Positions 12,001 through 15,000 of a DNA stretch of 49,469 nucleotides are shown here, in pieces. The DNA comes from a virus (Duplodnaviria > Heunggongvirae > Uroviricota > Caudoviricetes), in IMG/VR virus record IMGVR_UViG_2698536620_000015; one strand, written 5' to 3'. The position numbers are program-made. Positions within the stretch are counted from its first letter, which is position 1. Each line of letters starts with the position of its first letter.

Positions 12001-15000
12001 TCCAGAAGCGGGGAATCTGTTATCAAGGAAGAGTGGGTGAAGGAACTATGTCAGCATTGCCATGGTAAGGGAGAAGTCAGCACAGCGTGCAGAGGGTGTA
12101 AGGGTAAAGGTATTGTCCTGGATGAAAAAAGAACCCGGCTTCATGGTGTGCCTGTTTATAAGATTTGTGGGCGTTGCAATGGCAACCGGTTTAGCCGTTT
12201 ACCAACCACACTGGCGCGGCATCATGTCCAGAAACTGGTACCGGACCTGACGGATTATCAGTGGTACAAAGGATATGCAGACGTTATTAATAAACTGGTT
12301 ACAAAGTGCTGGCAGGAAGAAGCGTATGCTGAATCGCAATTGAGAAAAGTGACAAGATAGATAATTTTCGCCGAAGATGTCGACGTGATACTTGCATTTT
12401 TCAAAAAATATGGATAAGATTTTCTCAACGATGGGCCTTGTATGTCTACCGTTGGTAAATGTCAAAAACCCGCCGCTGAGCGGGTTTTTTGTGCCTGATG
12501 TCTCATGAAACTATGAAATGGATTGGTGCGTTAAACATTTTTTCTTATTATCTTTTAGATTTTGGAGAGATGGTTAACGTCTGTATTCCAGAAACTCGAT
12601 GGTTATTTAATAAATTAGTTTCAATGATGCTTCTAGGTTATGACTGTAATGAAAAAGGTATTAATAGCAGCGATAGGTTTTTGTTTAGTTGGTTGTGCAG
12701 GTATGAAATTACCTGAGTATTCGCAAGTTAAAGCAAGTCCGTATTATACAGATTGCCGTGCGTTTGCCATGGATGTTTATAAAAATGATGGATACAGCAA
12801 AATTGCGAAAACTACTATCCTTAGCATGGATGATGTGAAAGCTAGATATATTGTGACAGGGTGTGTAGTTGCTATGGGGAAAAACACTGTAGAGGAAATC
12901 AAAGCTGATCTCTCTGCTAAAGGGAGTTCTTTTGGGCTTATCAGTGGAGCTTGTTCTAGTGCGGCATGTCGGGTTGATGTAGAGCAGCAAATGAACGCTT
13001 ATGTACTTGGTAGTTATTATGCTGCAAATAAAAAATTCCCGGATAAAATGAAAGCAGAGTTTTAAGCAAACCTTGTTTTCGATTATATGTCGAAGATAAA
13101 TGTTAGTAACGGCATAATAAGTAAATATATAGCTGTGATAGCAACCCGCCACTGAGCGGGTTTTTTGTACCCGTAAACTTGGTGCAGTACAGTAAACACG
13201 CTGGTGGTCGTGAATACTGACTTTTTATCTTGCTGGCTTTTTAGACAAGAGTTATTGGTATGTCATGTTAACCAGAAGGGAAAAAGACATGCTAAAACAG
13301 CAAGATATGACAGAAACCGCCGCCGCAGTCCTTCATTTCTTACCTGCTGACAAGTGGGTAACGCCACGCATGATGACGAGAACTACCGGAGTAAGCGAAG
13401 CCCGGTGCCAGTTAATACTGACTCAGTTAGTTCTGGCGGGTCTGGCGAAGGATAACGGCGGGTACGGGAATAAATTCAGACGCTGCCAGTAATGGCGGTT
13501 TCCTGCTGTGAAAATGGGCGGCTGGTGGGTGTTGGTAGCACCTGCCAGCCATTCGCTCATGCTTACTGGTCACAAGCGAACCACGGCCCACTGCTTTAGC
13601 GCAAAAGCAGAGTGAGCCTACCAGAGTTACGCTTACTGATCCATGAAAAATACTGTAAAAATAAACAGTGTTGATTTAATCAACGCTGATTGCCTGCATT
13701 TTATTCAGTCCCTGCCTGATGATTCCATTGACCTGATTGTTACCGATCCGCCTTACTTCAAGGTGAAACCCAACGGTTGGGACAATCAGTGGAAAGGGGA
13801 CGAAGATTACCTTAAGTGGCTGGACCACTGTCTGGCCCAGTTCTGGCGGGTGTTGAAACCTGCCGGAAGCCTTTACCTGTTCTGTGGGCATCGCCTGGCA
13901 TCTGATATTGAGATCATGATGCGTGAACGTTTCAACGTGCTTAACCATATCATCTGGGCGAAGCCGTCCGGACGTTGGAATGGGTGTAATAAAGAAAGTC
14001 TGCGCGCATATTTTCCTGCCACAGAGCGCGTTCTGTTTGCTGAACATTACCAGGGGCCATATCGCGGCAAAAGTGACGGCTATGCGGCAAAAGAAAGGGA
14101 ACTCAAACAGCACATAATGGCACCGCTGATATCGTATTTCAGGGATGCTCGTGCCGAACTGGGTATAACGGCAAAACAAATTGCCGAAGCCACAGGTAAG
14201 AAAAATATGGTTTCCCACTGGTTTGGTGCCAGTCAGTGGCAGTTGCCGAATGAGGCTGACTATCGGAAGTTACAGGCACTGTTTTCCCGTATAGCGGCAG
14301 AGAAGTTTCAGGAACAACAACTGGAACAACCACACCACCAGCTGGTGGCATCTTATGATTCACTGAATCGTAAATATTCTGAATTGCTGGATGAGTTTAA
14401 ATCTCTCCGGCGCTATTTCTCCGTATCAGTCTCCGTGCCTTATACCGATGTCTGGATGCATAAACCCGTTCAGTTCTACCCGGGGAAACATCCGTGTGAG
14501 AAACCGGCGGATATGCTCAGGCAAATAATCAATGCCAGTAGTCGACCAGGTGATCTGGTTGCTGATTTTTTTATGGGATCCGGTTCCACAATAAAAGCAG
14601 CAATGGCGCTGGGGCGTCGGGCCTTAGGTGTTGAGCTTGAGTCAGAGCGGTTTAATCAGACAGTGAAAGAGATAAACGAGCTGGTGGGGAAATAATCTGG
14701 TGGCCACGTCAGGTGGCCTTTTTATTTCCATTACACAGCACCCGCATCTGCGAGGTGGGGTTATGAAATCCATGGATAAGTTAACAACGGGTGTCGCCTA
14801 TGGCACCTCAGCAGGTAGTGCCGGGTACTGGTTTTTACAGTTGCTCGATAAAGTCACGCCCTCACAGTGGGCGGCAATAGGTGTGCTGGGTAGTCTGGTA
14901 TTTGGCTTGCTGACGTATNNNNNNNNNNNNNNNNNNNNNNNNNNNNNNNNNNNNNNNNNNNNNNNNNNNNNNNNNNNNNNNNNNNNNNNNNNNNNNNNNN

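Follow-up and report, generated by a model that had tools for sequence, protein, structure and literature searches.

How is the interval between the late antiterminator gene and the late genes of a lambdoid prophage built, and what does it carry? We addressed this question in IMG/VR record IMGVR_UViG_2698536620_000015, a stretch of 49,469 nucleotides (the window, by which we mean this whole stretch) that is a lambdoid prophage of E. coli. A first-pass annotation, made from the sequence alone, had placed at 12361-13170 a candidate late promoter and terminator in a pR'/tR' arrangement just downstream of a Q-like gene, then a lipoprotein gene, then a second and almost identical terminator. We found the described elements at these positions or within a few bases of them. 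Several complete E. coli chromosomes, that of strain A14 among them, match the 840 bases of this feature at 100% identity, and the region is 97-98% identical in mEp460, Ayreon, PhiR47_1, phiSTEC1575-Stx2k and fifteen Stx2c-converting phages. Our reading, to which we give a probability of roughly three in four, is that the architecture and expression logic of the module are those of a lambda-type Q, pR', pause site and tR' with a moron inserted after the terminator. The elements on which this reading rests are as follows.

11608-12360, plus strand: Q antiterminator gene, 250 amino acids, lambda-Q family (PF03589, E 5e-54).
12392-12435, plus strand: late promoter pR' with sigma-70-dependent pause element (gap-free match to lambda pR').
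12464-12495, plus strand: T1, equated with tR', an intrinsic terminator at which the short pR' transcript would end (fold and T-tract).
12496-13171, plus strand: moron cassette with leader, lipoprotein gene, 3' untranslated region and its own terminator (missing in relatives with an empty site).
12523-12551, plus strand: candidate moron promoter, TTGGTG-17-TATTAT (position common to the Salmonella cassette).
12649-13065, plus strand: lipoprotein gene, 138-amino-acid precursor (open reading frame, with lipobox LVGC at 12685-12696).
13143-13171, plus strand: T2, terminator at the 3' end of the cassette and right copy of the repeat (fold and repeat).

A lambda-type late control region downstream of Q

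The gene upstream of the promoter encodes a protein of the Q-lambda family, as PF03589 is known (Yin et al. 2022, PMC9388147), and matches lambda Q in PDB 7UBM over its full length (E 3e-37). Residues ~121-159 of the window protein form an insertion of ~40 amino acids relative to lambda Q, with an extra CxxCxGxG zinc-ribbon-like motif that matches DnaJ_CXXCXGXG.

Downstream of Q, the promoter consists of a -35 hexamer TTGCAT (12392-12397), a 17-nt spacer and a -10 hexamer TAAGAT (12415-12420), followed by tttctc and by the pause element AACGATGGG at 12427-12435 (AACGAT plus GGG). Lambda pR' reads TTGACT-17-TAAATT-tgactc-AACGATGGG, and in an ungapped alignment with the equal 17-nt spacer the string CTCAACGATGGG is identical in the two promoters. 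In lambda, AACGAT is a -10-like element through which sigma-70 makes the polymerase pause, GGG is a discriminator at +7 to +9, and the pause occurs at +16 (PMC5001585). Since spacing and elements match those of lambda, the candidate promoter is a true pR' homologue with a Q-loading pause site; a plain consensus promoter scan overlooked it (7/12 matches). By analogy of position, transcription would start near 12427.

The terminator T1 follows closely. Its stem is formed by AAAAACCCGC (12464-12473) pairing with GCGGGTTTTT (12480-12489), giving 10 bp followed by a six-T tract, with a folding energy of -13.9 kcal/mol. The hairpin begins 37 bases past the inferred pR' start, so the terminated RNA is predicted to be ~65 nt long (12427 to ~12491). 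T1 is annotated as a terminator in SfV and Ayreon. In an alignment of 10 phages, both promoter hexamers and the pause element are invariant or nearly so, and a hairpin stands at the T1 position in all 10, nine of them with an AACCCGC-type stem and one, 118970_sal3, with a different stem sequence. Straight after the T1 T-tract the homology among these phages stops abruptly. In 35 phage records the whole block between the Q stop codon and the T-tract is conserved. The pR'/tR' arrangement proposed earlier is thus borne out by a lambda-Q homologue and by a promoter, pause element and terminator that are conserved together.

The region resembles the lambda late cassette in its homologous Q, its promoter geometry, the placing of AACGATGGG at an equal distance from the -10 hexamer, and a terminator before the late genes. 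It differs from lambda in that Q has 250 amino acids with the inserted motif, that the terminated RNA is ~65 nt rather than ~194 nt, and that a second terminator copy stands past an inserted gene. The late promoter pR' is constitutive, and its transcript is terminated in lysogens (PMC7547250); Q-modified polymerase passes downstream terminators (PMC9388147). In a lysogen of the present prophage, pR' would accordingly give only the ~65-nt RNA ending at T1.

A cassette bracketed by two terminator copies

T1 and T2 form a 29-nt direct repeat (12467-12495 and 13143-13171) with 27/29 identity and a distance of 676 nt, which is the longest repeat of the region. The stems of the pair measure 7-10 bp with a 6-nt loop; in T2, AACCCGC pairs with GCGGGTT ahead of a T-tract (13143-13166, -11.2 kcal/mol). 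Two near-identical terminators therefore do bracket the lipoprotein gene, as had been described. T2 is also the left boundary of the downstream late module, which comprises a small open reading frame (ORF), a DNA methylase gene and the lysis genes. Its 29 nt are identical in 24/24 carriers compared, and a separate survey found a stem-weakening change in 1/45 copies. The idea that T1 is relaxed and T2 essential was dropped, the difference in weakened variants (5/46 T1 copies vs 1/45 T2 copies) being not significant. Both hairpins weakly match the Rfam Trp-leader model.

The phage vB_EcoM-720R4 carries the same Q, pR' and pause site, followed by a single terminator that runs straight into the sequence found past T2 in the window. 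Exactly one repeat unit is hence the difference between a filled and an empty site. In a set of 5426 complete E. coli genomes, the site is filled in 215, and the empty arrangement, in which a single terminator joins Q-pR' to the late module, is present in 186. Class shares were taken from an evenly spaced sample drawn from the 907 matching records: ~23% were filled and ~15% empty, ~42% had the same pR'-tR' with other downstream sequence, and ~20% had only T2 and the right flank behind another upstream module.

Around a nearly constant cassette (96-100% identical among carriers), the flanks vary. Left of it, the 106 nt fall into two alleles among carriers (100% or about 90% identity), while identity of the right flank is about 99% in some carriers and only 60-84% in others; in several carriers an unrelated flank starts directly past the T2 T-tract. 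This variation, with its changes at the T-tract, marks the hairpins as mosaic junctions. Base composition sets the cassette apart as well, with a GC content of 31-43% along its length vs about 50% in the flanks. Present or absent as a unit, of atypical composition and with its own terminator, the cassette is a moron, and the exact empty site supports the earlier proposal to this effect. 'The moron comes of age' is reportedly a review of such elements.

Empty sites come in two forms. In SfV (locus L062, 1607-1680) the terminator is followed by GTGCCTTGATGT and then by TGGCAGTAC, which resembles the T1 tail. In 720R4 (locus L003, 3100-3160) the sequence past the terminator is GTACCTGTAAACTTGGTGCAGTAC, identical to the T2 tail. 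The 720R4-type empty site could be the scar of a cassette loss through T1 x T2 recombination.

A dedicated mobility mechanism, or 'terminator cassette' system, might recognise the repeated hairpin itself. The junctions do lie exactly at the T-tract, and in E. coli and Salmonella the same ~30-nt hairpin, with its GTACC tail, delimits cassettes that follow two unrelated Q families. We consider such a mechanism very improbable, however, as the cassette has no recombinase associated with it, acting as tR' is an obvious selected role for a hairpin placed here, and homology in the late module together with ~30 nt is enough for general or Red-type recombination. In our reading of the locus as a moron inserted after tR', ordinary recombination would need no more than the long late module at one end and the ~30-nt terminator at the other for the cassette to spread, and the conserved terminators would act as module boundaries.

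Lambdoid morons such as lambda bor and lom and those of HK97 are likewise extra genes between conserved neighbours, present or absent, low in GC and equipped with their own terminator; the window cassette may also share with them a promoter of its own. It departs from them in that its terminator is a near-exact duplicate of tR', so that the insertion is flanked by a 29-nt direct repeat.

Other cargo in the same slot

The interval behind the same Q/pR' varies widely in content. It holds no extra cargo in SfV and vB_EcoM-720R4, cspF/cspB in 2H10 and PhiR42_1, stx1AB in Lys8385Vzw, and other ORFs in 689R6, F1055 and 118970_sal3. Because the same Q/pR' precedes differing cargo among these phages, the earlier remark on this slot as a site of cargo in other phages, toxin genes included, is correct. 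In Stx2c and Stx2k phages the lipoprotein cassette itself shares the late transcript with stx2, which lies downstream of it. Conversely, prophages with a different, short Q have the same hairpin and right flank behind other cargo. In the E. coli AR_0374 prophage (locus L074, 1930-2376) the slot holds an unrelated AT-rich lipoprotein gene in reverse orientation (MNKMTVLLLSATIISGC..., WP_001038607.1), and the same hairpin and right flank come after it.

Phages that carry stx and the StxS small RNA (PMC7547250) use the same slot between Q and the lysis genes, and one relative with the present Q/pR' carries stx1AB. Lysogens of Stx phages constitutively produce the short pR'-tR' RNA (PMC7547250). 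The window differs from them in that its cargo is a lipoprotein rather than a toxin, and its predicted ~65-nt RNA is unrelated in sequence to StxS.

Salmonella has a cassette whose protein is 76% identical and which lies behind a Q21-type Q (PF06530/DUF1133). Its left bracket, AAGCCCGCCACTGAGCGGGTTTTTTTGTACC, is the same left hairpin, and its right bracket, AAAACCCGCATTGCGCGGGTTTTTGTATCC, is a related hairpin. The lipoprotein gene is there directly upstream of the holins.

The hairpin at 1222-1247

A further hairpin near the left end of the window had been counted as a member of the same family.

1222-1247, no strand assigned: bidirectional terminator outside the feature (11-bp stem, 4-nt loop).

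It folds on both strands (-17.3 and -16.2 kcal/mol) and lies between convergent genes, an ORF at 1029-1202 on the plus strand and a PrtN-family gene at 1250-1531 on the minus strand. When the three terminators were aligned, the likeness of T1 and T2 stood at 27/29 positions, but the third hairpin shared with them only the generic stem and T-tract; outside these nothing aligned and the flanks were dissimilar. Moreover, unrelated Xanthomonas phages contain matches of 93.5% to its core, as good as those to T1 and T2. The Xanthomonas matches, the Trp-leader matches and the dissimilar flanks indicate that the resemblance is what strong intrinsic terminators share, and the hairpin at 1222-1247 is thus no evidence of a shared cassette. 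We therefore rejected the suggested recurring terminator cassette that includes it, given the other stem length and loop, the lack of flank similarity and the equally good Xanthomonas phage matches. This also removes the third window hairpin from the case for a dedicated mobility site.

Leader and predicted expression of the cassette

The 153-nt leader of the cassette is 56% identical between E. coli and Salmonella, although synonymous sites are saturated (synonymous divergence dS 1.76). TTGGTG-17-TATTAT is the only sigma-70-like leader site that is positionally common to the E. coli and Salmonella cassettes; its Salmonella counterpart is TTGGTA-18-TATCAT. As judged from these sequences, the site would fit a moron with its own promoter and is put forward as a candidate. 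An upstream ORF with a TTG start at 12489-12716 (phrog_37626, partly annotated in Ayreon) overlaps the leader and was judged noncoding, its frame being broken by indels in Salmonella.

With such a promoter, the lipoprotein would be expressed in the lysogen, and T2 would stop the transcript before the methylase and lysis genes. Upon induction, Q-modified RNA polymerase would pass both T1 and T2, making the lipoprotein the first late product.

An orphan lipoprotein family

The gene between the terminators had been described as AT-rich, with an LVGC lipobox and several cysteines, which agrees with what we found. Its ORF has a GC content of 38% overall and 28% at third codon positions (GC3), and LVGC conforms to the pattern [LVI][ASTVI][GAS]C. 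The lipobox Cys and four further mature Cys, five in all, are invariant in eight homologues of 54-98% identity, and ratios of nonsynonymous to synonymous substitution (dN/dS) of 0.04-0.22 point to strong purifying selection. The invariant lipobox and cysteines, together with these ratios, establish that the ORF is real. Translation was taken to start at 12649, where the ATG is conserved in Salmonella; the RefSeq start at 12640 is ATC there. The precursor comprises a signal peptide, MKKVLIAAIGFCLVGC, predicted to be of the Sec/Lsp type, and a mature part of 122 residues. Outer-membrane sorting of lipoproteins follows the Lol +2 rule, and Ala at +2 predicts outer-membrane sorting of this protein by Lol. 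The AlphaFold2 model is a four- to five-helix bundle (predicted local distance difference test, pLDDT, 79; predicted template modelling score, pTM, 0.75), and the four invariant Cys suggest two periplasmic disulfides within it.

Homology and structure searches, which had been proposed as a check on the lipoprotein, matched no known family or fold. RefSeq lists the protein as a 'hypothetical protein' (WP_000217632.1), and its PHROG match, phrog_4748, has no function assigned; all PHROG matches up to E 0.1 are to families of unknown function (phrog_4748, 8068, 1754, 13472 and 902). The protein has no Pfam, NCBIfam or PADLOC match (for Pfam, 8 members were scanned). No sequence or fold similarity to the lysozyme inhibitors Ivy and MliC/PliC or to Tai4/Rap amidase immunity proteins was found. 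A fold comparison of the AlphaFold2 model gave no match, and a profile search of PDB only spurious weak ones. The negative library searches, together with a BLASTP E value of 6.3 against lambda Bor, agree with the first-pass annotation, which had called the lipoprotein one of no recognised family and not Bor-like.

The family is tiny. A word-indexed search of 5.8 billion proteins gave 9 clusters at 90%, and an exhaustive profile search of 1.84 billion representatives gave 8 at 50%; all members are from Enterobacterales. Its genes are nevertheless common: E. coli and Salmonella each have them on at least 1000 contigs, under no names other than 'hypothetical' or 'lipoprotein'. Homologues that are 54-66% identical occupy other accessory positions: they adjoin vapBC in the early region of Rac-like prophages, lie on a phage-like Buttiauxella plasmid and beside terminase genes in another phage, and are found among transposase genes. 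In Serratia (loci L008 and L009, 3004-3441) homologues of 55-58% identity are lone genes between emrA/emrB-like and SpoU methylase genes.

On the Buttiauxella plasmid and in the phage with the terminase neighbours (loci L005, 6446-6745, and L057, 3437-3736) a second lipoprotein gene, of 99 amino acids and assigned to phrog_7666, begins ~10 nt past the homologue. This second lipoprotein has no Pfam match and is absent from the window. The two may form a two-lipoprotein unit.

The literature yielded no phenotype data and no paper naming WP_000217632.1. A small RNA, sRNA-17 of E. coli K1 RS218, was found in mEp460-like prophages in a 'large intergenic region' after removal of hypothetical genes (PMC7719688). 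As a product of the cassette it was rejected: it maps to window 3936-~4120, in the gap between a yfdP-like gene and a cI-like repressor gene of the same prophage type. A paper on orf6/orf10 of a prophage of avian pathogenic E. coli (APEC) proved unrelated to the lipoprotein.

Possible functions of the lipoprotein

Position alone might suggest a late protein of lysis or of the virion, for example a regulator of spanin or endolysin, since the gene is the first of the late transcript and in Salmonella directly precedes the holins. Yet the late region works without it, which makes this role unlikely to a high degree: the gene is dispensable, as 186 E. coli genomes and the functional phages SfV and 720R4 keep the late region without it, and holin, endolysin and Rz/Rz1 genes already make up a full set in the window. 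Homologues also occur in early regions, on plasmids and in chromosomes. These lone accessory homologues favour a host-envelope function, independent of this phage's lytic machinery, over a virion or lysis role.

As to what an envelope function would be, superinfection exclusion of other phages is its likeliest form, a tentative suggestion that we would hold at clearly less than even odds. In that case the lipoprotein would shield the lysogen envelope by binding an incoming protein that traverses the periplasm. Cor of phi80, N15 and HK022 and Llp of T5 are phage exclusion lipoproteins, and T4 Spackle is a periplasmic helical inhibitor. Like these, the window lipoprotein is a small phage-encoded envelope protein, but the analogy is functional only: it has no detectable sequence relation and no fold match to them, and searches of PHROGs and PADLOC showed no similarity to the annotated exclusion families Cor/Llp.

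It is equally tentative, but possible, that the lipoprotein founds an unrecognised Enterobacterales family of prophage- and plasmid-borne periplasmic protective proteins, each an exclusion factor or an orphan immunity protein, expressed in the lysogen from a promoter of its own and again as the first late product, and sometimes accompanied by the phrog_7666 partner.

Several observations weigh against the picture of a phage-borne protective lipoprotein with a promoter of its own. The putative moron promoter is a modest match to consensus (8-9/12) and appears conserved across only two lineages. The AlphaFold2 model was built from only 8 sequences. The Serratia homologues have a chromosomal, non-prophage context, which argues against a phage-specific role. 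Finally, the C-terminus of J in the window is of the phage-434 type, as in most carriers, and phage 434 uses OmpC, which raises the idea of receptor masking; PhiR47_1, however, lacks a 434-type J and many 434-type phages lack the cassette, so the association is not strict, and it is confounded by shared ancestry.

The Serratia chromosomal copies also suggest a general envelope role, for instance one in host fitness or virulence like that of Bor, Iss or TraT, which would affect serum resistance, adhesion or tolerance of envelope stress rather than phage sensitivity. The gene follows the genetic logic of lambda bor, likewise a small moron for a lipoprotein close to the lysis region, and carriers are common in genomes of extraintestinal pathogenic E. 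coli (ExPEC) and APEC, of E. coli that produce Shiga toxin (STEC) and of Salmonella, an occurrence taken without background comparison. We nonetheless regard this role as doubtful, given that besides the insignificant BLASTP score none of 8 members matches PF06291 (Lambda_Bor) and that the literature found holds no phenotype data.

An orphan immunity protein or inhibitor, directed against a periplasm-acting enzyme such as a type VI secretion system amidase, a colicin or pesticin, or a lysozyme, appears somewhat less probable again. The protein is small, periplasmic, predicted to be helical and has conserved Cys, like several immunity proteins; Tai4/Rap and T4 Spackle are small periplasmic helical proteins with conserved Cys. 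The gene stands alone in Serratia chromosomes and on mobile elements, and in two contexts a second small lipoprotein accompanies it as a partner. On the other side stands the failure of the sequence and fold comparisons, reported above, to relate it to known inhibitors or amidase immunity proteins.

Overall, no concept is changed: the control elements are textbook lambda biology, and the cassette is a textbook moron that brings an orphan lipoprotein into a slot known to be hypervariable; only the function of the lipoprotein is new territory. For the gain and loss of a moron at a terminator the locus is a very clear case from nature, with filled and empty alleles at similar frequency in E. coli and with the same cassette behind two unrelated Q families. 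It also flags an abundant, uncharacterised envelope protein under strong purifying selection, lying upstream of stx2 in Stx2c and Stx2k phages, which is readily testable for exclusion, immunity or serum phenotypes.

Surrounding genes and the rest of the window

The gene order around the feature is a KilA-N gene, a DUF968 gene, Q, the cassette region, a small ORF, the DNA methylase gene, holin, endolysin and Rz/Rz1. The two features that follow the cassette are these.

13289-13492: small ORF, the first past the cassette.
13643-14695: DNA methylase gene of the downstream late module.

A run of N at 14919-15334 hides the end of the holin gene and a ydfR-like gene, and the annotation of E. coli A14 holds only for window 1-14918 and 15335-30327. 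Window 30328-49469 contains nine N runs, and a single tail-gene region of E. coli A14 is matched twice there, by 33088-40100 and by 40122-47014. On account of the N runs and the double A14 match, the right third of the window resembles either a draft joined by scaffolding or a tail module that is repeated.

At the left end (window 1-989), a Panacea-domain gene (PanA-like antitoxin) is truncated by the window start and followed by a small ORF; the counterparts of these genes in PhiR47_1 are annotated PanA/PanT. In the early-right region, Rfam matches at gathering level were obtained for isrK (6395-6471, plus strand) and C4 antisense RNA (6496-6583, plus strand), which suggests a P1/P7-type antisense-controlled antirepressor module. 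An Rfam match to IS009 (218 bits) lies at window 49231-49429, outside the prophage and near the window end.

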